Shown: in pieces, positions 2,222-56,793 of the stretch
Layout of the letters: each line of letters opens with the position of its first letter
Numbering within the stretch: position 1 is the first letter of the stretch
Origin: a virus
Taxonomy: Duplodnaviria > Caudoviricetes
DNA: 64,000 bases
IMG/VR virus record: IMGVR_UViG_3300028293_000005
Location: 9,874-73,873 of that record
Strand: one strand, 5' to 3'
Position numbers and translations under genes: made by a program
The notes under the pieces: generated by a model
Told to the model about the DNA's origin: nothing
The model's input: the letters and a program-made list of their open reading frames with translations, nothing else
Database searches by the model: none

Positions 2222-2439
2222 AGGCCGTCAAGCGGGTGATTGTGGCCGCGGCCACCGGCTCCAAAGTATTCGTGGGGCCGGAGATAGCCGCCCAGCGATT
2301 GGACGCCTGCCACCGGTGCCCGCACTTCAAGCCGAAGACCCGGCAGTGCGGGCTGTGCCTTTGTTTTGTGGACACTAAGGCCAAGCTGACCACGGAGTCC
2401 TGTCCGGACCATCGATGGGTTATCACGAATGTAGGTTGA
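2179..2439 (+). CDS. Small Cys-rich protein, DUF6171-like
   Basis: RLDACHRCP..CGLCLCFVDTKAK...SCPDHRW pattern recalled from DUF6171. Confidence 0.65.
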   Translation: MHVMQKIKAVKTAIKAVKRVIVAAATGSKVFVGPEIAAQRLDACHRCPHFKPKTRQCGLCLCFVDTKAKLTTESCPDHRWVITNVG

Positions 2440-2464
2440 CAAATCAATGATTCTCAACACTTAT
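2436..2464 (+). promoter_or_regulatory. Phage-type promoter TTGACA-N16-CACTTAT
   Basis: TTGACA 2436-2441, 16-nt spacer, CACTTAT 2458-2464, ATG at 2472. Confidence 0.75.
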
Positions 2465-2471
2465 TAAGAAG

Positions 2472-2942
2472 ATGACCGAGACCGCAATCCAGAAATGTTC
2501 TAAGTGCGCCGTCGTCCTTACGGACGAAAACGGGTATCGAGTCAAGGCCACCGGCCGGTTCAATTATTATTGTTGCACATGCGCGGTCGAATATAACAAA
2601 GCGCGGTATCAACGGGACCCGGAACGGGAACGTCGTGAGCAACGAGAATATCGCAAGAAAAACCCGGAACAGATGCGGAAGCATCAGTTGAAACGTGACC
2701 ACAACACGACGCCCGAATGGGTCGAGCAAAAATCCTCGGAACAATGTGGATGTTGCGCCATTTGCTGGGAGCCGCTGCCTAAAAATCCGCCGGTAGACCA
2801 CGACCATAATACGGGCGAGAATCGCGGACTTCTGTGTTCGAAGTGTAATTTTGGGCTTGGCCAGTTTGACGACCAGCCGCAGCGCCTTTTGAGCGCGATA
2901 GAATATCTGAAAAAGTATGCCACTGGCACCTTCCCTTCCTGA
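2472..2942 (+). CDS. Endonuclease VII-type (His-Me) free-standing endonuclease
   Basis: CAIC..VDHDHNTGENRGLLCSKCNFGLG motif. Confidence 0.9.
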   Translation: MTETAIQKCSKCAVVLTDENGYRVKATGRFNYYCCTCAVEYNKARYQRDPERERREQREYRKKNPEQMRKHQLKRDHNTTPEWVEQKSSEQCGCCAICWEPLPKNPPVDHDHNTGENRGLLCSKCNFGLGQFDDQPQRLLSAIEYLKKYATGTFPS

Positions 2943-5076
2943 ACCGAGTTACGCAGGCGCGCCGCCGGGAGATTTCAAGGGCGCTGTTTCTCCTCCGGAC
3001 CTTAACAAGCAACTGAAGCCCGGCAATCGGGCAATTCGGGATGCTGTGCAAGCGAGGAACATTGTAATGGTTTTGCTTGCGGCCTCGCGGGAAAGGAATT
3101 TGAAAAATGCCCGGATACAGGCCAAAGTCAACAGCGAGAAACCGCACCGCACGGACGCGCTGGAGAACGAAGGCTTGTCTTGGAAAGCAAATTTTTCAAC
3201 CAAAGTCCTCGCGATGCTCGTCGAAAAGGTCGCCCCGCGATTCGTGCAGGCGATTGACGGTGTCAAATACCTCACCAACTCGAAACTTCCGGACGATATC
3301 GACGGCGCCGCGGTGAAAACCGAGGCCTTCCGGCGCGAAATTACCGCGCTGTGTCGCAACCGCGCCGGCTGGCGTGATTTTTTGGGTGACCTTGCACAGG
3401 AAAACGCACTTTTCGGCTGGGCAGTGGTCGCTTGGCTCGATGAATTCAGTTGGATGCCGAAGTTTTTCCGACAAGATTTCGCCGCGGTGCCCACCGGCAC
3501 GAAGCCAATCCCGGGAAAAGCGCAGGTCGTCTGTCTGAAAGAGGTTTTTTTGCTCCACGAGCTGTTCGAACTGATTAGCGACAAGAAAGCCGCCGAAACT
3601 CGCGGATGGAATCTCGAAAACACGGTCCAGATTATCAATTCCGCGATGCCGCAGGACCGCCGCTCGCAGTATTCCGCGTGGGAACGCGTTTACGAGGACC
3701 TGATTCGCGAATCGAACCTCGGACTATCGCACGAAAGCGGTGCGCGCGTGGTTGTCGTGTGGCATTTGCTCGCTACGGAGATTGACGGGCAGGTTTCCCA
3801 CTACATTTTCGAGGAAAAAACTTTCACCGAGCTGTTCACGAGCGAGGACCAGTATAAATCGATGGCGGACGCCGCCGCGTTCTTCACTTTTCAGCAGGGC
3901 AACGGCACCGTGCATGGTTCGAAGGGAATCGGACGCGAACTTTACTCCATCGCGGGCATCATTGACCGCTCGCGCAACGAAGTCGTGGACCGGTTGAACC
4001 TTTCCGGCAAGGTTATCATCCAGGCGGACGAAAAAGTCCTCAAACGCTTCCGAATGTCGGTCGTCGGCAACGCGATTCTCATTGCGCAAGGCTACAGCGT
4101 GCTCGAACGCAAGCTGGACGCCGCGGTGGAGCCCTTTATCGAGCTTGACCAGTTTCTGACCGGACTGCTCGACCAGATGGCCGGCGCTACGACGCCAAAA
4201 GCGTTGCAGGGCGAGCGCGTGACCAAGGCCGCGGTGGATTTTCTCGCCTCACGTGAAGAAGAGACCAAGGATAACGTCATCTCGCGGTTCCTCACGCAAT
4301 TTTCCGCGGCGATGACCACGATTCAGCGGCGCGCCTGCGACCCGGACACCTCCGAGGACGACGCGAAGGAAATGCAGAAGCGTCTTCTCATGGTCATGTC
4401 CAGGGAAGAACTGAAAATGATTTCGGAGATGCCCTCGACTGAGACCGTCAAGGACTACACCGAAATTAAACGGCAGCAGGTCGTCATCATCGCGCAGGAA
4501 GCCCGCGGCAACGCGCTCTACAACGCCAAAGAGATTGAACGGCGCAAACTTATCGCGCTCGTGGACGAAGAGTTCGCGAATTCGGTGTTGCTGCCAGACA
4601 ACGACCCGACGGAACAAGCCGAGCAGGCCCGTGCGCAGATGATTGAGCTGGCGTCTCTGATTATTCCGCAGGCAACAGAAGTTCCTGTGTCGCCGCGCGA
4701 CAATCACCTCATTCACCTGCAGATTGCGATGCCCGCGTTGGAGTCCACCGCGCAGCAAGCGGTCCAGGACCCGCACGCGCTGCCCGTGCTCATCGCGATT
4801 TTGAAGCACTGCGCCGCGCACGAGCAAATTGGTTTGCAGACCGGCGTGGACAAGGCGGCAATGAAACCTTTCTCGGACATTATCGCGAAGCTCACGGCGC
4901 AGATGCCGAAGCTCATCGAGTCCGCACAGCAACATGCGGCGATTCAGCAACGTCACGCGGAACTGGCAGCCGGGGCGCAGCCAGGGCCAACCGACGAAGC
5001 TGGCAACCCGATTCCGGGCGCGCCGCCACCGACAGAAATGCCACCAGAACCAGCTGCCCCCGCACCGACACCCTAG
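2917..5076 (+). CDS. Portal protein (putative)
   Basis: 719 aa, helical, Pro/Gln-rich C-tail; position between terL and scaffold/MCP. Confidence 0.7.
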   Translation: MPLAPSLPEPSYAGAPPGDFKGAVSPPDLNKQLKPGNRAIRDAVQARNIVMVLLAASRERNLKNARIQAKVNSEKPHRTDALENEGLSWKANFSTKVLAMLVEKVAPRFVQAIDGVKYLTNSKLPDDIDGAAVKTEAFRREITALCRNRAGWRDFLGDLAQENALFGWAVVAWLDEFSWMPKFFRQDFAAVPTGTKPIPGKAQVVCLKEVFLLHELFELISDKKAAETRGWNLENTVQIINSAMPQDRRSQYSAWERVYEDLIRESNLGLSHESGARVVVVWHLLATEIDGQVSHYIFEEKTFTELFTSEDQYKSMADAAAFFTFQQGNGTVHGSKGIGRELYSIAGIIDRSRNEVVDRLNLSGKVIIQADEKVLKRFRMSVVGNAILIAQGYSVLERKLDAAVEPFIELDQFLTGLLDQMAGATTPKALQGERVTKAAVDFLASREEETKDNVISRFLTQFSAAMTTIQRRACDPDTSEDDAKEMQKRLLMVMSREELKMISEMPSTETVKDYTEIKRQQVVIIAQEARGNALYNAKEIERRKLIALVDEEFANSVLLPDNDPTEQAEQARAQMIELASLIIPQATEVPVSPRDNHLIHLQIAMPALESTAQQAVQDPHALPVLIAILKHCAAHEQIGLQTGVDKAAMKPFSDIIAKLTAQMPKLIESAQQHAAIQQRHAELAAGAQPGPTDEAGNPIPGAPPPTEMPPEPAAPAPTP

Positions 5077-5100
5077 CATTCGGTCTAACCCTACAGACCC

Positions 5101-9284: not shown

Positions 9285-9976
9285 AGAAAGTGGTCGTGAC
9301 CGTTCACGGTTACGCTGGCGACGCCCATCAAATTGGCGACCTGCGCCCGATGTATGAGCATCACAAGGTGCCCATCGTCGTGATGACGCCCGAGGACTCC
9401 CGTATCGAGACGTTCGGGCCGCACATCTGCCGCTTCGGCGGCAAGCGGCAATACATTGGCGAGGACAGCCTGAAGCGGCAGGTCCGCCATTGGGAAATGA
9501 TGCTCGACTTCAACGCGACCCACTTCCTATCGAATGATTCCGACAGCTTTTGTCTGGCCCCGGAACTTCCCGAGTATCTTTTCAAGCATGACGTGCTGTG
9601 GAGCAACGAAGTGTCCGATATGATGCACAAGCGGAAGCCGGATTACAAGTGGCCCCGCCTCGCGTTCCAGCCGCCATACTTTTGGTCGCGTGAGATTGTG
9701 GAGCGGTTGGTAAAAGCCGCGCCGCTGGTGCAGATTGACCAGCAGACGCCCTTCATAGATTGGTTCATGATGGCGGTCGCCGTGGCCGGCGGAATTCCGC
9801 ACAAGACCTTTCCGGACGGGTTCAGCTGTGGGACGGGATTCCCGCACGGGTTGAAGGTAATGACGGACCAAGTCTGGAACCGGGGGAAAATTTTCGTGCA
9901 CTCAGTCAAGAACGCGGCGATTCGGCGGCAGCTCGAATACGCGCGCGAACAGTTCCTCAAGAGGAAAAAGAAATGA
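9257..9976 (+). CDS. Putative glycosyltransferase (divergent GT-A)
   Basis: DxD in FLSNDSDS, C-terminal FVHSVK; loosely parallels 7969..8736. Confidence 0.5.
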   Translation: MPDEIQQSVKKVVVTVHGYAGDAHQIGDLRPMYEHHKVPIVVMTPEDSRIETFGPHICRFGGKRQYIGEDSLKRQVRHWEMMLDFNATHFLSNDSDSFCLAPELPEYLFKHDVLWSNEVSDMMHKRKPDYKWPRLAFQPPYFWSREIVERLVKAAPLVQIDQQTPFIDWFMMAVAVAGGIPHKTFPDGFSCGTGFPHGLKVMTDQVWNRGKIFVHSVKNAAIRRQLEYAREQFLKRKKK

Positions 9977-10911
9977 ACAAGGAATCCAAAATCTATGTGG
10001 CCGGTCACCGGGGGCTCGTGGGCGACGCCCTGTTTCGCCAGCTCGGGGCGCGCGGCTACCGGAACGTGGTCACAGCCACTCGGTCAGAAGTAGACCTCAC
10101 GGACCCGACGCAGGTGAAGTGGTTTTTCTCCGTGCACCGGCCCGAGTATGTTTTCCTGGCGGCTGCCCACGTCGGCGGCATCCTGGCCAACGACCAGAAC
10201 CGCGTGGACTTTCTCACGAAGAACCTCGCGATTCAAAACAACGTCATCCTGAACGCGGCCGAATACGGCGTGAAGAAGCTCCTCTTTCTGGGCAGCTCGT
10301 GCATATATCCGAAGGACTCCGCGCAGCCCATCAAACCCGAGGCGCTGTTGACCGGCGCGTTCGAGCCCACGACCGAGGCCTACGGAATTGCGAAGGTGGC
10401 CGGCATTCGCCTGTGCCAGTATCTGCGCGACGAGCGCGGGCTGAACTTCATCTGCGCGCAGCCGTGCAATTTATACGGCGGCGGGGACCGTTTTGACAGC
10501 GTCCGCTCGCACGTGGTGCCGGGGCTCCTGACCAGAATGCACACCGCCAAGAAAATCGGGATGCGGGAGCTGGACGTGTGGGGCGACGGCTCGGCCCAGC
10601 GGGAACTTCTCTATGCGGACGACTTGGCCCGCGCGTGCTTGGTCCTCATGCATGAATACGACGGGCGCGAGGTCGTGAATACCGGCAGCAGCGACGAATG
10701 GACTATCAAAGCGATTGCCGAGCAGGTGGCCGAGACCGTCGGATTCAAGGGCTGGCTGTTTTTCGATTCGTCCAAACCGACGGGCGTCCAGCGAAAAGTC
10801 CTCGACAACACCGTAATCCGGTCGCTGGGCTGGTCGCCGAAGGTGGCGTTCCCCGAGGGCCTGAAGCTGACCTACGCGCAGTATTTGCAGCGGCACGTGA
10901 ACGGGGCTTGA
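9973..10911 (+). CDS. fcl: GDP-L-fucose synthase
   Basis: GHRGLVG, FLAAAHVGGILAN, LGSSCIYPK, EAYGIAK, PCNLYG, SHVVP, VWGDGSAQRE all intact; ATG at 9973. Confidence 0.95.
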   Translation: MNKESKIYVAGHRGLVGDALFRQLGARGYRNVVTATRSEVDLTDPTQVKWFFSVHRPEYVFLAAAHVGGILANDQNRVDFLTKNLAIQNNVILNAAEYGVKKLLFLGSSCIYPKDSAQPIKPEALLTGAFEPTTEAYGIAKVAGIRLCQYLRDERGLNFICAQPCNLYGGGDRFDSVRSHVVPGLLTRMHTAKKIGMRELDVWGDGSAQRELLYADDLARACLVLMHEYDGREVVNTGSSDEWTIKAIAEQVAETVGFKGWLFFDSSKPTGVQRKVLDNTVIRSLGWSPKVAFPEGLKLTYAQYLQRHVNGA

Positions 10912-10936
10912 CATTTCCGGATTTTGTGGCACTGGT
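10908..10936 (+). promoter_or_regulatory. Phage-type promoter TTGACA-N16-CACTGGT
   Basis: Exact 16-nt spacer; ATG at 10946. Confidence 0.75.
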
Positions 10937-11329: not shown

Positions 11330-11778
11330 AGTGCCCCCGTTGTAATTGTGACAAGCCGCCAGAGGACTTCGGCAAGGACCGCAGCCGCCCGAATAGGCAT
11401 CAGACTTATTGCAAGCCTTGTGCGGTTGAAGTTCAAGAGGAGTATTTGGCACGCAATCCCGCCCAGGTCGAAGAAAATAAGCGGCGCGTTAAGGCGCGTC
11501 GCGATGAATTGGGCCGGAAGTTCAACCTTCTTAAAGCGGAACGCGGATGTTATGACTGTGGAGGACATTTTCCGCCGGAGGCCTTGGATTGGGACCATCG
11601 CCCAGGAACAGTCAAGCTGTTTCATGTTTCGGACTCTTATGGAACCCGAAGCTTTGAATCCATCGTGGATGAAATAGCAAAATGCGACCTCGTGTGCGCG
11701 TGTTGTCATAGGGTTAGAACGAAAAAGCGAATGGCACTTGACAAATCGATAAATTTCTTCACTTCTTCAGTGACCTAA
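11326..11778 (+). CDS. HNH-like endonuclease, type A (copy 1 of 3)
   Basis: CYDC..LDWDH..EIAKCDLVCACCHRVRT; N-terminal CxxC zinc finger. Confidence 0.8.
   Translation: MKCPRCNCDKPPEDFGKDRSRPNRHQTYCKPCAVEVQEEYLARNPAQVEENKRRVKARRDELGRKFNLLKAERGCYDCGGHFPPEALDWDHRPGTVKLFHVSDSYGTRSFESIVDEIAKCDLVCACCHRVRTKKRMALDKSINFFTSSVT
11738..11766 (+). promoter_or_regulatory. Phage-type promoter TTGACA-N16-CACTTCT for MCP
   Basis: Exact 16-nt spacer; inside the 3' end of the HNH gene, 143 nt before the MCP ATG. Confidence 0.75.
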
Positions 11779-11908
11779 GGGCTTCTTGGTCGGAAGCAAT
11801 CGGCCTAATCTGTCTGCGGCTGGCCGGCGCGGGCAGGGTAACTTCGCAGCCCCATTGCGAGGAAAAAACCGTAAGCGGTTCTGCCGCTTAAATTAGAAAG
11901 GCTCTCAA

Positions 11909-18321: not shown

Positions 18322-19691
18322 TGAACTACGCATTAGAGGAATTTTACGAGACAGCGCCGCTAACCTCGGCGGACGACGGGCATATCCTGATTGGGAAGCT
18401 CAATGCGGGCGGCGTGATTCAACTTTTTCGGCTGCACGTAAACGACCTGAACCGGATTACCGGTCCGACGGGTCCGACGGGTCCGACAGGCCCGCCCGGA
18501 ACTAACGGAACGAACGGGACAAACGGCGCAACTGGGCCTACCGGACCTACCGGACCAACGGGACCAACTGGCGCGGTTGGGCCAACGGGAAGTAACGGGC
18601 CAACAGGCCCCACAGGCCCTACCGGAGCAAATGGCGCAAGCGGGCCTACCGGACCTACCGGACCAACGGGACCCACGGGAGCAAGCGGCGCGAGCGTGAC
18701 TGGGCCAACCGGCCCCACGGGTCCCACGGGTCCCACAGGTCCAACGGGGCCAACAGGGCCAACAGGCGCGAGCGTTACTGGGCCAACTGGACCTACGGGG
18801 CCAACAGGACCAACTGGGCCGACAGGCGCAAGTGGGTCAGGCGGCGCGGCCGGCGCGTCCTATACGAGCGATTCTTTTGCGCTCGATAATTTCGAGGATT
18901 ACGCGACTGGCGCAATCTCCAACTTCACGAGTGGCTCCGGATGGAGCGGCTCGGGTTCGGCGTCTGGCGCGACTATCGTGGCTGTCACGGGTTTTGCTGG
19001 CACCGATAAGCGGCTCTCGCTCGTCGGCCCTGGCGAATTCAAGCGCAAGATGGCGTGGGGAGAAAAGTGGAAGCGGCTTCGCATTGGCGTCCTTCTGCGA
19101 ATCAGTGGCGCGGCCACTATCACTGGCGACTTTGTTTTCGGCGTTTGCTCTGGTATTACGGACGGTGCCGGCAGCACGGGCTGCGCGAACTTCATCGGAG
19201 TGGGCTCGCGACCGACGAATACTAATCAATACACGTATTCGACCGGCAGCGACATGGCGACCTTCGCCGCGACGTTTGCCAGCGCCTCCACCAAGCACAA
19301 CACGACCTGGGGTGACGGCGGCGGGTTTACGTCCATGAAGGGCTACACCGCGGCCGGGTCTGCGGGGTTGGTCGTGAATATCTGCGACATCCGGCGCGTT
19401 CGGTTCGGGACCACAAGCAACAATTATGTATTGTTCGGATTGGGACCCTCTGGCTCTGGAACGGGTGCCGACGGGCCAGAAAAGGCTCTGGATTGGGGCT
19501 CGCTCCTCCAGGCGGTCGCTATTCCGGACAACGCTACGCTGCCCCTGAACTGGTTCTGGGACGGTAATGCGGCCACGAACACCATTTCGCATAGCGAAAC
19601 GAACGGGGCCTTGGACAGCATCAACATTTGGTGGCAACACGCCACCGTGCCGATTGAGGTGGCTGGAATAGCCGTCCTCAAACTCTATTGA
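18321..19691 (+). CDS. Collagen-like (GPT)n fibre / receptor-binding protein 2
   Basis: About 125-aa GPT-rich tract; C-domain paralogous to previous gene; TGATG coupling gives ATG at 18321. Confidence 0.8.
18458..18830 (+). repeat. Gly-Pro-Thr collagen repeat (degenerate 9-bp units)
   Basis: Tandem ggnccnacn units read directly. Confidence 0.9.
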
Positions 19692-19716
19692 CAAACGTCC
19701 GGAAAACTCCACTTAT
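19688..19716 (+). promoter_or_regulatory. Phage-type promoter TTGACA-N16-CACTTAT
   Basis: Exact 16-nt spacer; ATG at 19723. Confidence 0.75.
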
Positions 19717-38352: not shown

Positions 38353-38518
38353 AAGGTCGCAATTCACAAGAACACGGCAAGGTAATTCCGCCTAGGCCGG
38401 GCTCACAGTGCGGGGCCGGGCTCATGCCTTCGCGATATAGCCAGTAAGTTGCCCAGCGTCGGTGAGCGTGACACCAAAACTTGAACCGGGTAGTATTTTT
38501 CTCGTAGCGGGGCTTCAT
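38315..38518 (-). CDS. Small Cys/His hypothetical protein
   Basis: ATGA coupling to upstream gene. Confidence 0.45.
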   Translation of the reverse strand: MKPRYEKNTTRFKFWCHAHRRWATYWLYREGMSPAPHCEPGLGGITLPCSCELRPYGTPPATYFGSS

Positions 38519-40235: not shown

Positions 40236-40264
40236 AGGTTACGACAGGGGGTTTGTTCTGTCAA
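40236..40264 (-). promoter_or_regulatory. Canonical sigma-70 promoter TTGACA-N17-TAACCT
   Basis: Read on - strand; ATG 10 nt downstream. Confidence 0.7.
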
Positions 40265-42105: not shown

Positions 42106-42134
42106 ACCAGTGCAGGTTTTTCCCGAAATGTTAA
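42106..42134 (-). promoter_or_regulatory. Phage-type promoter TTAACA-N16-CACTGGT
   Basis: Exact 16-nt spacer; ATG at 42097. Confidence 0.75.
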
Positions 42135-43099: not shown

Positions 43100-43873
43100 C
43101 TAAACCTCACCCCTTTCGTCCACGCCGGCCTTCTTGAACGCGCGACGCAACTTTTCGACTGCTCCATTATGAATTTGATGCACGCGCGCCCGCGTAATGC
43201 CGAGCGTGTCGCCGATTTCGCGGAGGTTCAGGTCCTGTTCGTAAAACATGCGCAAGACTTTCGCTTCCTTGGCGGTCAGCACGCGCTTGGACTGCTCCAG
43301 GCACCGCAGGATTAACTCCTTGCTGTCGCCTTCCACGTCCGGCTGCACCACGCCCTCGTCCTCGTCCAGCAACAAGAGCGTTTCCCCAGCTTCGTCGTCC
43401 GGGTAGTTCCCGTGGTAGTCCACGATATCCTTGGACCGCCACAGAGACTTGATTTCGGACTGAATGTAGGGCTTGGCGTAAGCCGCAAACCGGGTGCCGC
43501 GCTTGTGGTCGAATGCCTCAAAAGCCTTCATCAGGCCGAAGTTCGCCGCACTCACGACTTCGTTGTCCGGCAGCTTTCCGCGGACCAGCTTGCGCGCGTA
43601 GGTCATCGCGAACAGCAGGTGGTTCGTGATGATAAACTCGCGGGCGTCGTCGGCCTTTTGGCCGCGGCAGCCCTTTGCGGAGTTGAACAGTTGAGTTTCT
43701 TCCTCGGCGGTCAGAAGTTTGAATTTCAGGTCCGTCCCAGGTCCGTAGTAGTTGGTTGTGTCGTTCACGTTGAAATAGTGAGGGTGTAGCGGCATGCAGC
43801 TTCCAAACCGAGAAGAGAAGTCCTCCGTCTCTTTCGGTGTTGGAATTTCCACGCCCATGAAGGTGAAGTTCAT
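43100..43873 (-). CDS. Phage sigma-70-family sigma factor (regions 1.2, 2 and 4; region 3 reduced)
   Basis: LLTAEEETQL; NHLLFAMTYARK; GLMKAFEAFDHKRGTRFAAYA; LNLREIGDTLGITRARVHQI. Confidence 0.9.
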   Translation of the reverse strand: MNFTFMGVEIPTPKETEDFSSRFGSCMPLHPHYFNVNDTTNYYGPGTDLKFKLLTAEEETQLFNSAKGCRGQKADDAREFIITNHLLFAMTYARKLVRGKLPDNEVVSAANFGLMKAFEAFDHKRGTRFAAYAKPYIQSEIKSLWRSKDIVDYHGNYPDDEAGETLLLLDEDEGVVQPDVEGDSKELILRCLEQSKRVLTAKEAKVLRMFYEQDLNLREIGDTLGITRARVHQIHNGAVEKLRRAFKKAGVDERGEV

Positions 43874-46095
43874 TGCTTGGTGTATGGGTTGTCTTTGGTT
43901 TCCGCCACGGGTTTCGCTCCGTTCTTCGGATAACGTCGCCCGCGGCAAATTGTGAAAAGCCGGCGAAGGTCATTCCCCTGGACCTTGATGTCGAAACCCT
44001 TCATGGCTAAAACGGGCAGCATTTTGCCCAGCTGGTCCGCGCTGGTGCGGCCAATAGCTTCGCCCATGTTGCAGTCCGTCATCATCGATTTGAAAAGCTG
44101 ATAGGCGGTGCCTTCCCAGCAGTCGTGAGACGGATGCTTTTCGGTGAAGTAGATTCGCATCCATTCGTCCACCTGTTCGCCCATGCCGGCGGCTTGGGAC
44201 GACTGGTTCGCTTCGGTGATGACGGAGGGGTCGTGATAGACTTTCGGACCGTAGCGTTTTTCCGGCGTCAGCAACCGCTCCGGGATTTCGTAGTCCATGA
44301 GATATTTTGCGAAGTAGGGCAGCTCCCTCGCCAGCGTTTTGATGATGACCGGCCGCTCCGGGAAAATGAACCCATCGGTGCGGGTCGGGACGCAGCGAAA
44401 CAGGTTCAGCTTGTCCAGGTTTCCCATCCCGATTTCCGGGATGGCCCTGAGGCTGTCCGGGTCATCGTTGCACGAGGCCAAAATGCGACCGGCCCAGTCC
44501 ACCAGACTCGCGGCGCGGTATTTTTCGTTCGAGCGGAAGGCCTGATTCGCGCAGGCGCGCTTCAACATTTCCGTCATCAGCCGGTGCGTGCGTTGGTCAA
44601 GCCCCAGCGAATTATCATCTAATGCCCAAATGAACACCTGCCACAGCTCGCTATTAAAAGAGTCGCGTCCCATAATCCAGTCCTGGCACTCGGCGTATCC
44701 GTTAAACAGGGCTCCGATAATATAGCGCGTATTCAGAGTTTTGCCACAACAAGGTGGCCCAATGAAGTAAGAAACTGGACCGGGCTGCGGGTCGCGGTTG
44801 TAGGCGCAGCGATAGGCATACGCCGCGTAGGAGATAAAGGAGTCAAGCGCGTCGCCGCTGGTCAGCCAGCCGTCATAAAACTTCGCGATGAAGGGGAACT
44901 TGTCTCCCCACTTTTGTGTTCCGGGCGCTGGCGGCAGAACGTCGATGGTGTGCACGTTCAGGAACCGCTTTCCTTGATATGGCATGAGTCCTTTGGGATA
45001 GAAGGCAAAGCTGCCTGCCGAGGCAATTTGCCCATGGTTACGTATGTGAATGATTGCCTCGTCCAGGGGTGAGTAGTGACCGCCCTTTGGCCGGCGGTCC
45101 GAGATACCGCGCTCCACGCGCAAGTGGCGGGACAGGGAGTCCGTAGTGTCGAACATCCATTCCCCCTTGAGATTTTTGTAGATGAACTGGTGATTGTCGA
45201 AAAAGATTCCGTCCACCGCGGCGCCCATCTGTTTTGTCTGGAACTCCTTTACAAAGGGGACGCCGAAGAAGTCGGCCCAGGTCATGTATGCGTGATGCGA
45301 CGCGTGCGAGGCAAAAGAGCGGATGCCCTTGGTGTCGGCGATGGCGGATTTTTTACTCGTGGACTCCGGCTCCCAAAACGTCGGCCCCATGGAGTCAACC
45401 ACAAAGTCGCCTTCCCAGTCCGCGAAGCGTGGATACTTTTCCTTGAGCAGCGGCGCGACAATTTCGAGCGGGATTTCAACCAGCTCGGGACCCTGGAATG
45501 AAAACTTTTTCGAGCAGGCCATTTCCCAGCCGAGGACCAAGTCCGCCGGCACGGGCTCGTCGTGGATTTTCTCCCACCGGCAGCCGTTGGTATAATAGCG
45601 CGTGCAGGACTCCACCGCGCCCTCGTCGATGTTCGGCACCTGCCGATACGGTATCAGCTCGTGCAGCTTCCCAAGCAGGAACTTCGCATACTCAGCGCGG
45701 CCCAAAAAGTTGATGGGTCGCCCGAGTATCCACACCAGCCGGAAGTGACCGCTGAATGTGGTTTCAATGTAATTCGGCCGCAGCTTGCCCATCCGTTCGA
45801 GCGCGCCGTCCAGCTCTGCGCGCGTCAGCTTGCAGTCCACGTCGATGGGGACCACCTGACACTCGTGCGCGGGGTTTTCCTTGTTGATGCGCAGGTTCGG
45901 GTTCAAGCCTGCAATACCCGAATACATCTGGTGGACTGTGGCCGGGGTGTTCGCCCACTTGTCGCGCAGCTTTTTATCCGCGAAACAGTCCGGCGGAACC
46001 TTGGCGAGGTTGTCCGCCGGATATTCCCACGGCAGGCACTCCGTAATTTCGTGGCTACAAAGGTTCCGCAGCGCGAAGCACTTTATTTGATTCAT
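43870..46095 (-). CDS. Primase-helicase (primase-like N-terminus plus DUF5906/D5-like SF3 ATPase)
   Basis: IDVD and ETTFSGHFRLVW; Walker A GPPCCGKT; WALDD; EKYR. Confidence 0.75.
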   Translation of the reverse strand: MNQIKCFALRNLCSHEITECLPWEYPADNLAKVPPDCFADKKLRDKWANTPATVHQMYSGIAGLNPNLRINKENPAHECQVVPIDVDCKLTRAELDGALERMGKLRPNYIETTFSGHFRLVWILGRPINFLGRAEYAKFLLGKLHELIPYRQVPNIDEGAVESCTRYYTNGCRWEKIHDEPVPADLVLGWEMACSKKFSFQGPELVEIPLEIVAPLLKEKYPRFADWEGDFVVDSMGPTFWEPESTSKKSAIADTKGIRSFASHASHHAYMTWADFFGVPFVKEFQTKQMGAAVDGIFFDNHQFIYKNLKGEWMFDTTDSLSRHLRVERGISDRRPKGGHYSPLDEAIIHIRNHGQIASAGSFAFYPKGLMPYQGKRFLNVHTIDVLPPAPGTQKWGDKFPFIAKFYDGWLTSGDALDSFISYAAYAYRCAYNRDPQPGPVSYFIGPPCCGKTLNTRYIIGALFNGYAECQDWIMGRDSFNSELWQVFIWALDDNSLGLDQRTHRLMTEMLKRACANQAFRSNEKYRAASLVDWAGRILASCNDDPDSLRAIPEIGMGNLDKLNLFRCVPTRTDGFIFPERPVIIKTLARELPYFAKYLMDYEIPERLLTPEKRYGPKVYHDPSVITEANQSSQAAGMGEQVDEWMRIYFTEKHPSHDCWEGTAYQLFKSMMTDCNMGEAIGRTSADQLGKMLPVLAMKGFDIKVQGNDLRRLFTICRGRRYPKNGAKPVAETKDNPYTKQ

Positions 46096-46553
46096 CGAAA
46101 ATTCCTTTGGGCGAAGTCGCCAAAGAGCCGCTGGCTTGCTTCGTTGTAGGCTTGCTGCGCGTCGGCCTTGTTGTTAAACAGTCCGAGATAAACACCTTTT
46201 TGATTGTGCACCAACCGGGCCATCCACTTTTTCGCTGCCTTGTGCCAGTAAACCCCGCGGGACCCCCGCTGCACGCAGTCATGTCGATAGCCCATTTGAT
46301 TCTGCGCGCGTGTAGCCACGCGCAGATTGTCACGCTGGTTGTTCAATCCATTGCCGTCCTTGTGGTCTACTTGTTCTCCGGGACCCGCTGAGACGAGAAG
46401 TCGGTGCATGTAGACATACTTCTTTCCTTCATATCGCGCCGCGTGAAAGGTGTGCTTTCGCTTTTGTGCGGTCCACCTGAATTTCGACAACGCTTCAAAG
46501 TCGCCATCATCCAAGAGAACTTGTTGACCGCCGGAGATGGGAAGAATTTTCAT
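46092..46553 (-). CDS. HNH-AP2 homing endonuclease
   Basis: VDHKDGNGLNNQRDNLR; RGVYWHK..YLGLF..AQQAYN. Confidence 0.9.
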   Translation of the reverse strand: MKILPISGGQQVLLDDGDFEALSKFRWTAQKRKHTFHAARYEGKKYVYMHRLLVSAGPGEQVDHKDGNGLNNQRDNLRVATRAQNQMGYRHDCVQRGSRGVYWHKAAKKWMARLVHNQKGVYLGLFNNKADAQQAYNEASQRLFGDFAQRNFR

Positions 46554-47476
46554 TTTTCGTAACAGGGAACTTCTTTGGCTTCCGCCGTAACAGGACACCC
46601 AGCCAGCCACGGGGGAGTAATGGACATGATATTCTGAACATCCCGAGCTGAAATGTGAGACGCACATTCACAGACGACTTCGTCGTGTATCGACCAAAGG
46701 ACGTGTATACCCGGAGTTTCATGTAATTTCAAAAGGTGAAAAGCAAAAACATCGCGTGCGGTCGCCTGCACGAGGTTTTCTGTAAGCAGCCCGCCATACA
46801 GGGTGGACCGCATGCCGCCGACGTCGGCGGTGAAACACAGCTTGCGCTTGAACCCGAGCGGCGTGTCGTCGCCGGGACGTCGCGCGCTGATGTTGGAGTC
46901 GTCATCGGTCACCGGCACCAACTTCCATTCGGACCGGACGTCCTTATACGTCATCACTCGGCCCGAAGGCAATTGCAGTTTGAAGTCGCCGCCCACCGCA
47001 CTCTTGAAGTCCTCGTCCAGGCGGCGCCAGAGGCCAGTCACGCCGGGGTTGCTGTCCCGATAGTCCTTGACGATGCGCCGGGAGTTTTGACCGTAGCCCG
47101 AAACCATTTTCTGAGTGCCGTCCGCGTTGATGACGGGGTCCCCGTCGCGCGTCAGCGCGGGTTCCCATTCGGGGTCCCCCGCGGTGATATCCAGGCCAGC
47201 CATGGACTGCGCCATGGTGATGAACTTGCGCCAGCCGGCGCCGTAACCCAGCCCGAGAATACGAACCTTGGCCAGGGCGTATTTGATGGGGTCCTCCTTT
47301 TTCAGGTCACCCTTCACCCATCGAGGGCTGCCAGGATTCCAATCCATGGACGCCTTGGCGTGCGCGACGTATGGCGAGTCACCCGCGGCCATGGCTGCTA
47401 GGGCCACCTTGTCTTTGACCAGCCATGCGAGAACGCGGGGTTCAATTTGCGAGAGGTCGGAAACTATCATCTTCAT
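46550..47476 (-). CDS. polA: DNA polymerase family A, C-terminal (polymerase) half
   Basis: Motif A VSDLSQIEPRVLAWL, motif B AKVRILGLGYGAG, ENLVQATARD, motif C IHDEVV. Confidence 0.9.
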   Translation of the reverse strand: MKMIVSDLSQIEPRVLAWLVKDKVALAAMAAGDSPYVAHAKASMDWNPGSPRWVKGDLKKEDPIKYALAKVRILGLGYGAGWRKFITMAQSMAGLDITAGDPEWEPALTRDGDPVINADGTQKMVSGYGQNSRRIVKDYRDSNPGVTGLWRRLDEDFKSAVGGDFKLQLPSGRVMTYKDVRSEWKLVPVTDDDSNISARRPGDDTPLGFKRKLCFTADVGGMRSTLYGGLLTENLVQATARDVFAFHLLKLHETPGIHVLWSIHDEVVCECASHISARDVQNIMSITPPWLAGCPVTAEAKEVPCYEK

Positions 47477-48546
47477 ACAGCGTCAGGGCGGGGAATAATG
47501 AGGCGGCGCACGTCGAGCGCGTGCACGGCGAGGTTCTTGTCTTCAGTCAGCCCGCCTTCAGCGGTTGCATAGATGGGCACCTTTCGAAAATTCTGGAAGT
47601 TCAGCCCCGCGTCGCCGGACCAGCGCCCGGTGTGCGCGCCAAAATACTTCAGGCCGAAGGGTAACGTGCCGTCGTCTTTCAGACGGGTCTTGATGGTCTT
47701 CAGCGTGCCGTGAAACTTGTTCAGCTGCCGATACGCGATGACGGCCTGTATCCACGGGAACCGCGGCGCGTATTCGGCCTCCCACTTCTCGAACGCGCCC
47801 ACGCCTTCCTTAGACTTGACCGGCGGGCAGGGGATGTTTTCCTTGCGGCAGGCCTCGGCCATGGCCTTGGGGCTCGTCGGCTTGGCGCCGGCAGACACCC
47901 AGGGCAACGCGTGCAGGGCGACTATCATCATCGTGTCGGTGATGCGCAGGTATTCATTCAGCAATTCCGTGTCGATTTGCACGCCCCGCATGCCCTGCTC
48001 GATGGTGAGGTTCGACAACTGCCGCTCATGCTCCGGCCACAGGTGCCCAAACTTGTCCCAGAGTTGCCAGCAATGAAACGCGTCGCTGCGCGCATAAGCC
48101 AGCATGCGCTCCCGTCCAGCCTTGTCTTCGCGCAACTGGTCCGATGTTTTCCCATTCGCGTCGTTGCGCGTGGACTTGTCGAGCGTGATGCCGAGCAAAA
48201 ACTGGCAGGCGTCGTCGAGCGCGCGACGGTTGCAGAGGTAACTGGAAAGATTGGCTGAACAATGCCACGCAGAAAATTTCACCTGTGGCGCCCAGCCCCG
48301 TTTCACCATCTCGTTGTAAACCGTCCTATCGAACTGAGCATTGTGCGAAACCAAAACTTGGTTTTCGAGCGCGCCCCAGTTGAAGTCCGCCGGTTTTCCG
48401 GCCCAGCAATTTTTCCCGTCACAGACCGATATCAGGTAAGGGTCAAAACGGTCGTCTCTGACGTATCTTTCTGCCCCCAAGTCCTGAATGCTATAATCCA
48501 GCTTGGTGGCGTAATAGGTTTCGAAGTCTACTGCGATACTTTTCAT
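47473..48546 (-). CDS. polA: DNA polymerase family A, N-terminal (3'-5' exonuclease/thumb) half
   Basis: Exo I AVDFET, Exo II SHNAQFD, Exo III YARSD, HTGRWSG..NFQNF. Confidence 0.9.
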   Translation of the reverse strand: MKSIAVDFETYYATKLDYSIQDLGAERYVRDDRFDPYLISVCDGKNCWAGKPADFNWGALENQVLVSHNAQFDRTVYNEMVKRGWAPQVKFSAWHCSANLSSYLCNRRALDDACQFLLGITLDKSTRNDANGKTSDQLREDKAGRERMLAYARSDAFHCWQLWDKFGHLWPEHERQLSNLTIEQGMRGVQIDTELLNEYLRITDTMMIVALHALPWVSAGAKPTSPKAMAEACRKENIPCPPVKSKEGVGAFEKWEAEYAPRFPWIQAVIAYRQLNKFHGTLKTIKTRLKDDGTLPFGLKYFGAHTGRWSGDAGLNFQNFRKVPIYATAEGGLTEDKNLAVHALDVRRLIIPRPDAV

Positions 48547-48887
48547 ACTTTTCGTGGACGGCCTTTCGCCGCCTTTCTTTTCCATGTTCGAAGCCGGTGA
48601 CAACAGGCACACACAAGGTCACATTTGGCTATCTCGGCAAAAAGCTTTTTCAACGAGTGGCTCCAACCTTGGGCCACACAAAACCGCTTTCGCCCCCGCA
48701 CATGGTCAAACTCCATGCAGGCGGGATGAAATGTTTTTCCGCAGTCCACGCATGGGTCTTTTTTAAGCTCGTCGATTATCCTTCTCCGGCGGGCATAATG
48801 CTTAACTTGGTTTTGACGCGAACCCCGACGAGCCTTCTTGCGATTCCTCTCGCGCCATTCCTTGGAGTATTGCGCAGCGGATTTCAT
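48543..48887 (-). CDS. HNH-like endonuclease, type A (copy 2 of 3)
   Basis: PCVDC..MEFDHV..EIAKCDLVCACCHRLRT. Confidence 0.8.
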   Translation of the reverse strand: MKSAAQYSKEWRERNRKKARRGSRQNQVKHYARRRRIIDELKKDPCVDCGKTFHPACMEFDHVRGRKRFCVAQGWSHSLKKLFAEIAKCDLVCACCHRLRTWKRKAAKGRPRKV

Positions 48888-48896: not shown

Positions 48897-48925
48897 ACCA
48901 GTGGAGGGATTTTGCAGAATGTTAA
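48897..48925 (-). promoter_or_regulatory. Phage-type promoter TTAACA-N16-CACTGGT
   Basis: Exact 16-nt spacer; ATG at 48887; would drive HNH-polA-primase-sigma. Confidence 0.75.
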
Positions 48926-50114: not shown

Positions 50115-50143
50115 AATCTCGCACACGGTCGTTCTTTTGTCAA
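50115..50143 (-). promoter_or_regulatory. Canonical-type promoter TTGACA-N17-GAGATT
   Basis: Immediately after a terminator; leaderless start follows. Confidence 0.6.
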
Positions 50144-52523: not shown

Positions 52524-52552
52524 ACCAGTGGAGACTTTTCCGGAAATGTTAA
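52524..52552 (-). promoter_or_regulatory. Phage-type promoter TTAACA-N16-CACTGGT
   Basis: Exact 16-nt spacer; GTG at 52519. Confidence 0.75.
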
Positions 52553-52948: not shown

Positions 52949-53143
52949 TCAAAGAGGAAGTTCGAATTGTTCGGGACAATCGGGCAAGTCCTGCCATCGT
53001 CGCACGATTTGGTCACCACGAACATAAGCGCGACCATTCCAACGCCAGCCATTGGCCAGGGCATTTTTAATTCGTCGGGTTTGCGCGGAGGTCAGCCCCG
53101 ATGGGTCAGTATTCGAGTCGGATGACTTCGATTGACCCTTCAT
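52949..53143 (-). CDS. Small hypothetical protein
   Basis: ATG at 53143; ends EQFELPL. Confidence 0.45.
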   Translation of the reverse strand: MKGQSKSSDSNTDPSGLTSAQTRRIKNALANGWRWNGRAYVRGDQIVRRWQDLPDCPEQFELPL

Positions 53144-53693
53144 AAATAAAGGACGCAACCGGTGCGAATTTTGCCGTCTGTGGTTCGAAGAAGAACACCT
53201 CGCCGTCGTTGCGGACGATGAAAATTATAACGTGGAGCCCGGTCACCCACGGCTCGTCGTCGCGAAAGAGCGAGTAAGGCCCGTCCAGCTTCACGTAGGC
53301 CTTGCCTACGAGCGCGCCGGGCAGCTCGCCATGCCAATGACGCACGGACCAGCAGGACGCGAGGTATTTGAATTCGGTTGCTTTGTCGTCGCAATCGAAG
53401 ACCTCCTCTATCCACGGAAACATTTCCTTGCGCGCCGCCCAAAACTTCACGAGGTCCTCGATTTCCGCTTGGGTCAGGGTCATGTAAGTTCCGTCCTCCG
53501 GCCCCAGCAGATACGGATTGGGGTCCGGCGGGCACCAGTTGACCTTTTTGCCCAGCAGAGATTCCGCTTCCTCCCAGGTCATATACAGGGGCGAGTCTTG
53601 CGGCGCTCGCGGCACATTGCAGAGGATGGGAGAAGGAGGGTCGTCGGCCAGGAGTGTCCCCGCCGCCAGGAGCAAAGCTAAAAATGTCTTCAC
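53106..53693 (-). CDS. Secreted papain-like protein (DCDD...H...EPQ family)
   Basis: Signal peptide MKTFLALLLAAGTLLA; FDCDDKA, LHVIIF, FFFEPQT. Confidence 0.65.
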   Translation of the reverse strand: MKTFLALLLAAGTLLADDPPSPILCNVPRAPQDSPLYMTWEEAESLLGKKVNWCPPDPNPYLLGPEDGTYMTLTQAEIEDLVKFWAARKEMFPWIEEVFDCDDKATEFKYLASCWSVRHWHGELPGALVGKAYVKLDGPYSLFRDDEPWVTGLHVIIFIVRNDGEVFFFEPQTAKFAPVASFIYEGSIEVIRLEY

Positions 53694-53707: not shown

Positions 53708-53736
53708 AGAAGTGGCGGCAGAGGCAGTTTTGTCAA
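53708..53736 (-). promoter_or_regulatory. Phage-type promoter TTGACA-N16-CACTTCT
   Basis: Exact 16-nt spacer; GTG at 53693. Confidence 0.7.
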
Positions 53737-54041: not shown

Positions 54042-54289
54042 GCGCCAGGAACGTGGATTTTGCCATGCACCACGCGGCCGTCCGCGCAGCGGGTGATGCC
54101 GTGCTCCGCGCTGTAGATACCGGCCTTGGGTGCCGGCGCCACCTTCGCGTTGTGAGCGTAGGGGTCCCAACGGGGCCACAGCTTTTCCGAGAGCCACTGG
54201 CTGGGCCAGAGCAGCATGAGCAACTCTTTCGGATTCGGGATGCCGAAGTGACGATAGAAAAATTTGATTCGTGACCATGCCGCTTTCAT
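54038..54289 (-). CDS. Small hypothetical protein
   Basis: Coupled overlaps at both ends. Confidence 0.45.
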   Translation of the reverse strand: MKAAWSRIKFFYRHFGIPNPKELLMLLWPSQWLSEKLWPRWDPYAHNAKVAPAPKAGIYSAEHGITRCADGRVVHGKIHVPGA

Positions 54290-55215
54290 CAGCTTTTTTC
54301 GGTAAGTTGTTTCAGCAGCGGAGCAACGTTGCCGCTTTTGTTTCGGTCGTCGATAAGCTTGCCACACGCCTTGGCGTCAAGCTTGATTGCCATGCACGCC
54401 ATTATATGGGCCTCGTGCGGCAGGCCGGACTCCTCGTCAAGGTCCTGCCCATCGAGCACGGCGAACAGGTGCCGTAAGGCAGCCTCGTCGTAGACCGTTG
54501 CGCGCACCGCGGCGTCTCGCCAATTCCAAGGCCCATATTTTTTCGCGCCGAGGGCCATTACTTTCGCAAGGTAGACGAGCCCGATGGTCGGCAGCAGTCG
54601 CAGTGGTGGCTTCTTGGTGCCGGCAATGTCCTTGGGGTTGGACGAAACCGTGGGCGGCTTGTCGTTGGGCACCTGCACAAACATGCCGTGAGCGTCGGCT
54701 TCAAAACGCTTCGCGCAGCGCCAGTCGAAAACAGCCTTCTCCGCTTGCGCACCCTTAGACTTTTCGTAGCCCGGGAGCGCAACGTAGCCGGCGCAGGACA
54801 GGATGGCGCGCAGGTCCCGACGCACGACCTGCTCCGCGTCCATGCCGTCGGGATATTTCGTGAAGTCGTGGTCCTTGGCCAACGACTCGATTCGAAAACC
54901 GTCCTGGCGGTCCAGCTCGGCCGGGTTCACCGGGTCGTAGCCGGCGTTCTTGAGTCTCGCGGCCATTTCGTAAAAGGCCGGGAAGTTGTATTGGTCATGC
55001 CCTCGCATCGGGCCGAGGATATAAATGGCCAAGGGGTTCACTCGCGTCGGTAACGCCAGCGAGTCGCTTCCATTCGGCGAACCATGCGCTGTCGTGCCAG
55101 GGTTCGTGATACCCGCGCCGAGGTCGGCCGGAGCTATCGGGATAAAAGCCGTTTCCCTCGTCGCATTTTCTGTTTTCAGTTTGGTCACAAGTTCGTGCAG
55201 TTCTTGGAAGTTCAT
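54289..55215 (-). CDS. Fusion of DUF4406 (deoxyribosyltransferase-like) and DUF5664 (dATP/dGTP diphosphohydrolase)
   Basis: IYILGPMRG..NFPAF..NPAE..LPGYEKSKGA.AE; NPKD..KPPLRLLP..GAKKYGPWNWR..RH..DEESGLPHEAH. Confidence 0.8.
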   Translation of the reverse strand: MNFQELHELVTKLKTENATRETAFIPIAPADLGAGITNPGTTAHGSPNGSDSLALPTRVNPLAIYILGPMRGHDQYNFPAFYEMAARLKNAGYDPVNPAELDRQDGFRIESLAKDHDFTKYPDGMDAEQVVRRDLRAILSCAGYVALPGYEKSKGAQAEKAVFDWRCAKRFEADAHGMFVQVPNDKPPTVSSNPKDIAGTKKPPLRLLPTIGLVYLAKVMALGAKKYGPWNWRDAAVRATVYDEAALRHLFAVLDGQDLDEESGLPHEAHIMACMAIKLDAKACGKLIDDRNKSGNVAPLLKQLTEKS

Positions 55216-55430: not shown

Positions 55431-55463
55431 TTTGATTTTGGTTTTGGTTCGAAAAAATTTTCA

Positions 55464-55856: not shown

Positions 55857-56073
55857 TATGGGCTCCTTTCTTCGTGGTCGGCCCTCCGAACCCTCCCAGC
55901 GCGTAATTGCGCCGCAGAGCGGCAATGGCGGCTTCCTGCGTGGCACCGCAGCCGGACAGGTCCAGCTTAGTTTCCTGTTCGGTGACTATCCAGCATCGGC
56001 CGAATTCCGGCTTGCACCGGCCTATTCCCTCAACCGTTATGGTTGTGTCCTTCTTTTCGTTTGTCGGTCTCAT
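55846..56073 (-). CDS. Small hypothetical protein
   Basis: ATG at 56073; GCGATQEAA HicB-like motif. Confidence 0.45.
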   Translation of the reverse strand: MRPTNEKKDTTITVEGIGRCKPEFGRCWIVTEQETKLDLSGCGATQEAAIAALRRNYALGGFGGPTTKKGAHNAR

Positions 56074-56266
56074 GTTTTGGTTGTTCGTTCGCCATGGCCA
56101 CAGCGTTGGCGCACACCTCGCAAAAGCGAAGGCGCCGGCGCGTGACTGAATCAATTATCGTGAACTGCCGGAATTCGACTTCCTGCATGCCAATCATTCG
56201 GCGCAGCCGGTTGCTGTCCCCGGCTTCCATGTGACAGCCGCAAAGGGCGTTCTCGCAAAACTTCAC
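56030..56266 (-). CDS. Small zinc-finger-like protein
   Basis: CENALC and FCEVC. Confidence 0.5.
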   Translation of the reverse strand: MKFCENALCGCHMEAGDSNRLRRMIGMQEVEFRQFTIIDSVTRRRLRFCEVCANAVAMANEQPKHETDKRKEGHNHNG

Positions 56267-56754
56267 TTGATGCGCAGCGTTAATTCCCGTGCCGTGGAAC
56301 CCAGCAGCGTCGTGATGGACTCCGCGAGGTTAGCCGCCAGGGAGCCCCCCAGGACAAAACCTCCGGTGATGTTGACCGGCGTCCCCCGCAGGCGGTCGCG
56401 CAGCGTGATGTGGCAGCGGTCCTGGCCGCGGGAAAACCGCAGCACGATATCGCACGATGCGCCGTGAAAGAACACCTGTCCAACGTGCAGCGCCAGCGAC
56501 TTCTCGTCCCCGTCGTGCGGGAATAACTGCCGGACCGTCTGCCCGTCCGTCAAGCGAATGGCGGCGTTCTCGCGTTTCTCGATTTTCGAACCGACGCGCC
56601 GAACGCTCTGGGCGCCGGGGAAGAGTTTATACACCTCGGCTTCCAGCGCCGCGTAGGTATCGCGGGCGGACGCGCCGGGTTTGCCGCAGGGAACCTCGAC
56701 AGTGACCAAGCCACCATCGACCATAAAAGAGCCAAGCATGACGTTTGAATTCAT
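56263..56754 (-). CDS. Hypothetical protein
   Basis: Own phage-type promoter. Confidence 0.6.
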   Translation of the reverse strand: MNSNVMLGSFMVDGGLVTVEVPCGKPGASARDTYAALEAEVYKLFPGAQSVRRVGSKIEKRENAAIRLTDGQTVRQLFPHDGDEKSLALHVGQVFFHGASCDIVLRFSRGQDRCHITLRDRLRGTPVNITGGFVLGGSLAANLAESITTLLGSTARELTLRIK

Positions 56755-56764
56755 TCTATCTAAT

Positions 56765-56793
56765 ACCAGTGGAAGCCTTTTTCGATTTGTATA
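56765..56793 (-). promoter_or_regulatory. Phage-type promoter TATACA-N16-CACTGGT
   Basis: Exact 16-nt spacer; ATG at 56754. Confidence 0.65.

Follow-up and report, generated by a model that had tools for sequence, protein, structure and literature searches.

Phage sigma cascades are textbook regulation, and late transcription in phage T4 is directed by gp55 from a short, rigid -10-type box. In phiEco32 and 7-11, the early genes are transcribed from host sigma70 promoters and the later genes with a phage sigma factor (PMC8948821, PMC12276001), the phage-sigma promoters of both phages being at similar genome positions although their sequences differ (PMC8948821). A bioinformatic study of these two phages notes that phage-sigma promoters tend to be present in few copies and to be well conserved (PMC4331800). 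Moreover, in SPO1 the host sigma is replaced in a temporal cascade by phage sigma factors (gp28, gp33/gp34), each class with its distinct consensus (PMC13401047). The sequence analyzed in this work is a window of 64,000 nucleotides, bases 9874-73873 of virus record IMGVR_UViG_3300028293_000005, the genome of an uncultured phage of 73,873 bp rated complete by CheckV. The window encodes a two-domain sigma factor and contains a series of rigid TTGACA-N16-CACT sites ahead of replication and virion genes, and a comparison with relatives suggests that these sites are promoters read by that sigma.

The pattern TTGACA-N16-CACTNNT is found six times in the window against 0.01 expected, and the wider TWDACA-N16-CACTKVT ten times against 0.02 expected, with never more than one match in 100 shuffles. 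An earlier note on this DNA, made from the letters alone, had listed ten sites with an exact 16-nt spacer and proposed a scan against shuffled sequence; the scan shows a clear enrichment, and each site is in the sequence as listed, the coordinate given there for minus-strand sites being the 5' end of the -35 hexamer. In the complete genome, there are 14 strict sites (0.20 expected) and two with a weaker -35, giving 16, six of which lie in the 9.8 kb beyond the window. All 16 are co-oriented with the following gene, and 14 are at most about 14 nt from its start codon, the other two standing ahead of long untranslated stretches that precede the 426-aa capsid-like gene and a terminase-like gene. 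For the window, the claim that nine sites lie just before a start codon and that the tenth (11738) precedes a leader agrees with the distances found: in the nine, the next ATG is 4-13 nt beyond the final T of CACTnnT, and in the tenth the 426-aa gene, which begins at 11909, follows a leader of ~140 nt. Also, the -35 hexamer often contains the stop codon of the upstream gene (T-TGA-CA or T-TAA-CA). As for the box itself, proposed as CACT(T/G)(A/C/G)T, this form is exact at all ten window sites, but its final T is not kept in relatives, where CACTGGG and CACTTAA occur, which leaves CACT as the conserved core.

In the whole genome, Sigma70_r4 is matched only by the product of the open reading frame (ORF) at 43100-43873, whose identification as a phage-encoded sigma factor is upheld by the presence of both sigma2 and sigma4 domains, by a conserved region 2.2 and by its being the only sigma in the genome. 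The Pfam matches are 3.6e-9 and 36.7 bits for Sigma70_r2 (PF04542, cut-off 24) and 3.2e-14 and 52.6 bits for Sigma70_r4 (PF04545, cut-off 24.1). The protein passes the generic TIGR02937 (76 bits, cut-off 42.9), and among the named NCBIfam sigma classes (RpoH, RpoS, FliA/WhiG, SigB/F/G, SigK/E) none is reached, the best scores being 57-79 bits against cut-offs of 189-394. It aligns with the solved RpoS, RpoD, FliA and RpoH chains, and the top Foldseek matches of its model are SigA, RpoS, RpoH and WhiG. In the AlphaFold2 (AF2) model, sigma2 helices (residues 56-147) are joined to sigma4 (181-248) by a disordered linker of 33 residues (148-180), with a predicted local distance difference test (pLDDT) of 70-90 in the domains; the first 47 residues are disordered and there is no sigma3. 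The main core-binding segment, region 2.2, shows good conservation (GLMKAfeaF), and the protein is predicted to bind core RNA polymerase and to direct promoter-specific initiation.

The two segments proposed earlier as the readers of the promoter, YAKPYIQSEIK and TRARVHQ, do align with YATWWIRQ.. and TRERVRQ of the solved RpoS/RpoD chains. The first corresponds to sigma70 residues 430-440 through the E. coli RpoD coordinates in the alignment search, and the established E. coli residue numbering is applied here to the phage sigma. In the region 2.4 equivalent, Y430 is kept, with W433 changed to P, W434 to Y, R436 to Q, Q437 to S and T440 to K. In region 4.2 (TRARVHQ vs TRERIRQ), R584 and Q589 are kept, whereas E585 is changed to A and R588 to H. 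The family of this sigma is small, its homologues being 247-265 aa long and numbering 14 at 59-98% identity, after which the values fall to 33%. A search for a phage RNA polymerase gave no PF00940 match in the genome, a weak negative since the control genomes were silent too; nor did Pfam show an RNA polymerase domain in the 2151-aa virion protein, which is also without a relative in the PDB. The first 45 residues of the sigma form an N-terminal extension (SRFG..MPLHPHYFN..D), predicted to be disordered, that is kept in all sigmas of the CACT clade and absent from those of the relatives named below as G007, G008, G009 and L041.

The comparison set consists of seven complete or nearly complete genomes, the window's phage (G000), G001, G002, G006, G007, G008 and G009, in which four boxes were counted and tested against shuffles (means of 0.10-0.37 for CACT and 0.00-0.10 for GACCTT, AACTTT and AACCTT). 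CACT is found 14 times in G000, 13 times in G001 (sigma 83% identical to that of G000), 13 times in G006 (67%) and 14 times in G002 (68%), with none of the other three boxes in these genomes, and in G001, G006 and G002 the motif is kept though the spacers are unalignable. On the other hand, G008 (sigma 38% identical) has no CACT and 10 GACCTT, G007 (36%) has no CACT, five AACTTT and one AACCTT, and G009 (32%) has no CACT and four AACCTT, all other counts being zero; these three genomes are complete, of 70-74 kb, with the gene order of G000 and their boxes also at N16 spacing. Each box is then essentially private to its own genome, the single AACCTT of G007 being the exception, and an unbiased 5-mer count at fixed offsets after TTGACW recovers the same boxes with no prior choice. 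At the orthologous site of the capsid-like gene, the sequence is CACTTCT in G000, GACCTTT in G008, AACTTTC in G007 and AACCTTG in G009, followed in all by a leader start resembling CACAGAGCTAA. Likewise, the promoter of the portal-like gene has CACTT(A/C)N, GACCTTT (G008) or AACTTT (G007), depending on the clade.

The equivalent of sigma70 430-440 is YAKPYI(Q/R)SEI in all the CACT genomes, FLRPFIRGRI in G008, FLRPFIRGAI in G007 and FLIPYVRAAI in G009. The box thus changes with the region 2.4 equivalent, with 13-14 CACT sites in four genomes and 0 in three, which speaks for the earlier proposal that the phage sigma may read a new CACT box; the motif, which was to be looked for in related phages, follows the sigma type across the seven genomes. 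As to relatives lacking the sigma gene, which were also sought, all 12 family members examined carry one. The third base of the -35 also differs, being G 16, A 11 and T 2 in two TRARVHQ genomes vs G 27 and T 1 in two TRERIRQ genomes. This is in line with the idea that the sigma tolerates a varied base at this position, the relaxation being found only in the TRARVHQ clade, although the change of the R588 equivalent to His had been missed. Because the genomes of each pair are close kin, a link between the relaxation and TRARVHQ amounts to one evolutionary event and is only suggestive. In a more partial relative, L041 (a 19-kb fragment whose sigma is 44% identical over 40% of its length), there are no CACT sites and two or three ACTTT-like ones, too few to count.

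The genome also contains another class of promoter-like sites. Listing all TTGACA hexamers reveals a further population, TTGACA-N17-(G/T)AnnnT, with a variable -10 (TATATT, GATAAT, GACAGT, GAGATT). For TTGACA-N17-KANANT, five matches are present in the window vs 0.08 expected, four of them within 2.4 kb, ahead of small ORFs where the minus-strand arm begins, and most ordinary sites have the ATG exactly 5 nt past the hexamer, as in a leaderless design. This class is found in all seven genomes compared, with 4-12 sites each (shuffle means of 0.3-0.9), clustered before small ORFs. The five ordinary sites previously placed in the early arm are present, although one of them, 40264 (TAACCT), falls outside KANANT, while KANANT adds a site that had not been listed (60187).

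Moreover, two subclasses can be told apart among the CACT sites. Class A, with the box CACTGG(T/G), consists of TT(G/A)ACA, a spacer rich in TTTcCGGAAAA, the box, and an ATG 10-14 nt further on, and is mostly ahead of replication genes (DNA polymerase, primase-helicase, sigma, DUF2800 nuclease). Class B, with the box CACTT(C/A)N, has the layout TTGACA-A-N15-CACTT(C/A)N, after which there is usually TAAG or TAGG and, typically 6-9 nt past CACTTN, an ATG, and is mostly ahead of virion and other plus-arm genes, including those of tail fibres. In four genomes, the first spacer base is T in 19 of 27 class A sites vs 6 of 30 class B sites (P = 2e-4), and the distance to the ATG also differs between the subclasses (P = 6e-5). 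A palindrome-like TTT(T/C)CGGAAAA (TTTCCGGAAAA) is common to the class A spacers, e.g., at window positions 52530-52545 (-) and 42112-42127 (-), whereas those of class B are without it and not conserved; a timing factor could use this palindrome as its operator, or it could be a DNA-shape feature. The small gene heading the nuclease operon has a class A box (CACTGGT) in G000, AACTTTT in G007 and GACCTTT in G008, that is, the same rigid box that precedes the virion genes of G007 and G008, which indicates that the distant clades have one rigid class and the clade of the window has two. Two other ways of parsing class A were rejected: as an extended -10 (TGGTAWWAGT), it would leave TTGACA 22 nt off and the invariant CAC as well as class B unexplained, and TAGAAT before the class A ATG, taken as a -10 box, has no -35 box at a usable distance. 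The sites in the window and the genes discussed are given in Table 1.

Table 1. Candidate promoters, genes and other features in window coordinates
Feature	Position	Strand	Remarks
Class A, TTAACA-N16-CACTGGT	48897..48925	-	Heads the unit of DNA polymerase, primase-helicase and sigma genes
Class A, TTAACA-N16-CACTGGT	42106..42134	-	ATG 8 nt on; TAA stop of the upstream gene within the -35 hexamer
Class A, TTAACA-N16-CACTGGT	52524..52552	-	Ahead of the DUF2800 nuclease operon; orthologous position AACTTT in G007, GACCTT in G008
Class A, weak -35, TATACA-N16-CACTGGT	56765..56793	-	Orthologous G001 site has TTAACA
Class A, TTGACA-N16-CACTGGT	10908..10936	+	Plus arm; ATG 9 nt on
Class B, TTGACA-N16-CACTTAT	2436..2464	+	Ahead of an endonuclease VII gene and a 719-aa portal-like gene
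Class B, TTGACA-N16-CACTTCT	11738..11766	+	Leader of ~140 nt, then the 426-aa capsid-like gene
Class B, TTGACA-N16-CACTTAT	19688..19716	+	Downstream of tail-fibre genes; ATG 6 nt on
Class B, TTGACA-N16-CACTTCT	36132..36160	+	ATG 5 nt on
Class B, TTGACA-N16-CACTTCT	53708..53736	-	Sole minus-arm class B; precedes the 195-aa protein; kept in G001, G002, G006
Ordinary, TTGACA-N17-TATATT	59610..59638	-	ATG 5 nt on, leaderless design
Ordinary, TTGACA-N17-GACACT	60159..60187	-	
Ordinary, TTGACA-N17-GACAGT	60973..61001	-	ATG 5 nt on
Ordinary, TTGACA-N17-GATAAT	61955..61983	-	
Ordinary, TTGACA-N17-GAGATT	50115..50143	-	Closest host-type promoter upstream of the sigma unit
Ordinary, TTGACA-N17-TAACCT	40236..40264	-	Kept in G002
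Sigma factor gene, 257 aa	43100..43873	-	Start overlaps the primase-helicase stop (ATGA); Pfam Sigma70_r2 + Sigma70_r4
N-terminal extension of sigma	43739..43873	-	Residues 1-45
Primase-helicase-like gene (DUF5906)	43870..46095	-	Directly upstream of sigma, one transcription unit
Family-A DNA polymerase	46550..48612	-	Two ORFs
DUF4406/MazZ-like protein	54289..55215	-	
Leader of the capsid-like gene	11767..11908	+	
195-aa protein	53106..53693	-	
Group-1 glycosyltransferase	37267..38367	-	
GDP-L-fucose-synthase-like epimerase	9760..10911	+	

Based on these data, the favored reading, to which we assign a probability of roughly 0.72, is that the TTGACA-N16-CACT sites are promoters read by the host core RNA polymerase with the two-domain sigma of the phage. 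The TAnnnT class is uniform in all clades, whereas the rigid class is specific to each clade, which points to the host primary sigma for the first and to the phage sigma for the second, promoters and sigma having changed together. From this placement and covariation, we infer the holoenzyme in use, the transcription start points and the timing. The host primary sigma would first use the TTGACA-N17-(G/T)AnnnT promoters before the small early ORFs, and read-through of the co-directional replication module would then provide the first sigma mRNA, the ordinary promoter closest upstream of the sigma unit being its likely source. The phage sigma would next activate the class A promoters of replication and nucleotide-metabolism genes, one of which precedes its own operon and would give positive feedback, as well as the class B promoters ahead of the virion genes. 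In this process, sigma4, with its sigma70-like recognition helix, would read the shared TTGACA, E585A and R588H relaxing its third base in the clade of the window, and the altered region 2.3/2.4 (YAKPYIQSEIK) would read CACT instead of TAnnnT. For most class B and ordinary promoters, the ATG would be at the expected transcription start, yielding leaderless mRNAs, and class A transcripts would have a leader of a few nt. The passage from host-sigma early to phage-sigma middle and late transcription that had been proposed earlier gains from the ordinary promoters, whose presence before small ORFs in all seven genomes would fit such a switch.

Several points weigh against this reading. In every genome, the sigma gene belongs to the array DNA polymerase, primase-helicase, sigma, an order conserved in all relatives, and this array stands behind a phage-type promoter, with ordinary promoters farther upstream, so that the first sigma must come by read-through. 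A scan for intrinsic terminators neither backs nor contradicts read-through into the sigma unit, the number found being at background (33 vs 27 expected in shuffles) and not allowing the ends of transcription units to be set. Also, one sigma must serve two subclasses, which it might tell apart by the bases after CACT, by another factor binding the palindrome-like spacer of class A, or by the N-terminal extension of the CACT clade. The covariation is based on only about four clades, and phage clades infecting different hosts may likewise yield clade-specific boxes. Moreover, three relatives with sigmas 35-40% identical (G011-G013) have no rigid box anchored on TTGACW, which leaves the series incomplete across the family.

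Among the alternatives, one would have the host primary sigma read CACT, either alone or after a small phage protein has remodelled it, as AsiA/MotA do in T4, and leave the phage sigma with another or a minor role. It draws on the host-type TTGACA of the -35, on the A that a 16-nt spacer places at -11 of CACTNN, and on the many early ORFs of no known function that could encode such an appropriator. Nonetheless, it is improbable, given that the T at -7 is missing and that the box is rigid, unlike the degenerate TAnnnT found in the same genome, and shifts between clades with region 2.4 of the phage sigma while the ordinary class stays constant; the sole phage sigma would also be left with no candidate promoters. 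The reversed assignment, in which the host reads CACT and the phage sigma reads TAnnnT, was discarded, TAnnnT being the same in all clades and the rigid box being the one that shifts with the phage sigma.

A conserved phage sigma would equally be deprived of targets if CACT were read by an alternative sigma of the host, e.g., one of stress or stationary phase, to which each phage clade would be adapted in its own host. The phage sigma is about equally like RpoS, RpoH and FliA, which leaves some room for this idea, but all clades would then need a conditionally expressed host factor for their replication and virion genes, and the relaxation of the -35 follows the sigma4 residues of the phage, making it less credible still. 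Finally, the closeness of the sites to start codons and the palindrome-like TTTCCGGAAAA of the class A spacers could be those of operators for a phage DNA-binding protein or of RNA-level signals at gene starts, rather than of promoters. This is very improbable, because two boxes, an exact 16-nt gap to TTGACA, strict co-orientation and the layout of the ordinary promoters correspond to a sigma70-family promoter, and the class B spacers are not conserved.

If the phage sigma does read these sites, a further possibility, doubtful for now, is that the family is a natural specificity series for a minimal two-domain sigma, in which TTGACA and the 16-nt spacer would be kept and the -10 rewritten (CACT, GACCTT, AACTTT, AACCTT) in step with a dozen region 2.3/2.4 residues. 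The clade of the window would keep the A at -11 and have lost the near-universal T at -7, implying a -10 recognition and melting not described before, and the three bases after CACT (GGT or TCT) would form with the spacer a second code sorting middle from late promoters, possibly through the 45-residue N-terminal extension or a partner protein. To our knowledge, promoter specificity is known for few phage sigmas, nearly all of them from cultured phages of E. coli, Salmonella and Bacillus. The present analysis predicts a specificity for a sigma family found only in metagenomes (about 14 close homologues), with three or four sister specificities at matching promoter positions, and so offers a ready set for learning which sigma2 residues read which -10 bases. 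These sigma/promoter pairs could also serve as orthogonal pairs in synthetic biology, and the promoter classes help to assign early, middle and late genes in a phage group where most virion genes lack a Pfam or PHROG match.

Regarding the host and the origin of the genome, no DNA or protein relative was matched among GenBank phages, relatives being present in IMG/VR and other metagenome collections. Leads to the host were sought in tRNA genes, of which the phage genome has none, and in two scans of bacterial genome contigs (fucose synthase and primase-helicase alignment), which gave no match. Shine-Dalgarno-like sequences (GGAG, GAGG or AGGA) are found at most 20 nt upstream of the start in ~13 of the 90 called genes of the window, and many genes either are joined to their neighbour through an ATGA overlap or start where transcription is predicted to begin. 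The few Shine-Dalgarno sequences together with the leaderless gene design suggest a host with initiation independent of this signal, which probably does not rely on Shine-Dalgarno pairing, and this narrows the hunt for it.

Some other features of the window deserve mention. For the family-A DNA polymerase, two ORFs are called, of 379 aa (with the exonuclease domain) and then 308 aa, in place of which G007, G008 and G009 have a single gene of 669-681 aa. In the protein of another minus-strand locus, a nucleoside deoxyribosyltransferase-like domain (DUF4406) precedes a dATP/dGTP diphosphohydrolase N-terminal domain (MazZ-like, PF18909, 4.9e-28), which may point to an altered nucleotide pool or to modified bases; the genome has no PurZ-like adenylosuccinate synthetase, and the Z-genome pathway is consequently not indicated. 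A group-1 glycosyltransferase and a GDP-L-fucose-synthase-like epimerase are also encoded, and the phage therefore carries glycan-modifying genes. In the leader between the class B promoter and the capsid-like gene, long stretches are kept in G001, G002 and G006, with the first ~12 nt shared even by distant clades; the leader folds with an unremarkable energy (z = -1.35), and Rfam gives no match anywhere in the window. For the 426-aa protein itself, called major capsid protein in the earlier note, there is no Pfam or PHROG match and the AF2 model is too poor to judge (pLDDT 37.5); among its Atlas look-alikes are capsid families (Phage_capsid_3/4, Gp13-like), carried by 11-40% of neighbouring-cluster members, and this is no more than a lead. 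The 195-aa protein, the only minus-arm gene behind a class B promoter, has a weak Agglutinin_C match, and a hydrophobic, signal-like N-terminus begins at an internal ATG in relatives. In the distant relative G013, the 9-mer CGTTTACAC occurs 14 times (loci L101-L104), on both strands, within and between genes, with flanks that are not conserved.

Compared with the systems described, the closest parallels are phiEco32 (gp36) and 7-11 (gp47), which share with the present phage a distant sigma homologue, rigid low-copy middle and late promoters, and promoter positions that are kept while the sequence differs. The 7-11 promoter is likewise bipartite with a 16-nt gap (GTAAtg-N16-aCTA). However, there is no detectable sequence relationship with these phages, no gp79-like factor has been identified here, and the promoters differ in having a host-type TTGACA at -35, where theirs is phage-specific, CACT at -10, two subclasses and a mostly leaderless design. 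SPO1 uses two successive phage sigmas with wholly different -35 and -10 elements, whereas here a single sigma gene is accompanied by a shared core motif with two subclasses. The phage protein resembles ECF (extracytoplasmic function, group 4) sigmas in its two domains joined by a linker, the AF2 model showing, with moderate confidence, sigma2 and sigma4 only and no sigma3, and its sequence is like RpoS, RpoH and FliA. It departs from group 3 and group 4 sigmas in reaching only TIGR02937 and in being encoded in a phage replication operon, and the candidate promoters, TTGACA-N16-CACT, have neither the AAC-containing -35 nor the CGT-like -10 of the ECF type. With T4 gp55 it has in common a sigma-like phage factor and a short, rigid -10-type box, but T4 late promoters are without a -35 and need gp33 and the sliding clamp, while here a -35 at fixed spacing is integral to the site. 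As in cascades of the phiEco32, 7-11 and SPO1 type, a rigid, over-represented motif stands before non-early genes in a genome that encodes a sigma and has host-type early promoters alongside, and this motif varies with the phage sigma among relatives with the promoter positions kept. The description of the system as a new transcription switch was hence overstated, phage sigma cascades of such logic being already known (PMC8948821, PMC12276001). The CACT sites and their sigma would represent a known type of cascade rather than a new kind, in which it is the predicted -10 specificity that appears to be new.

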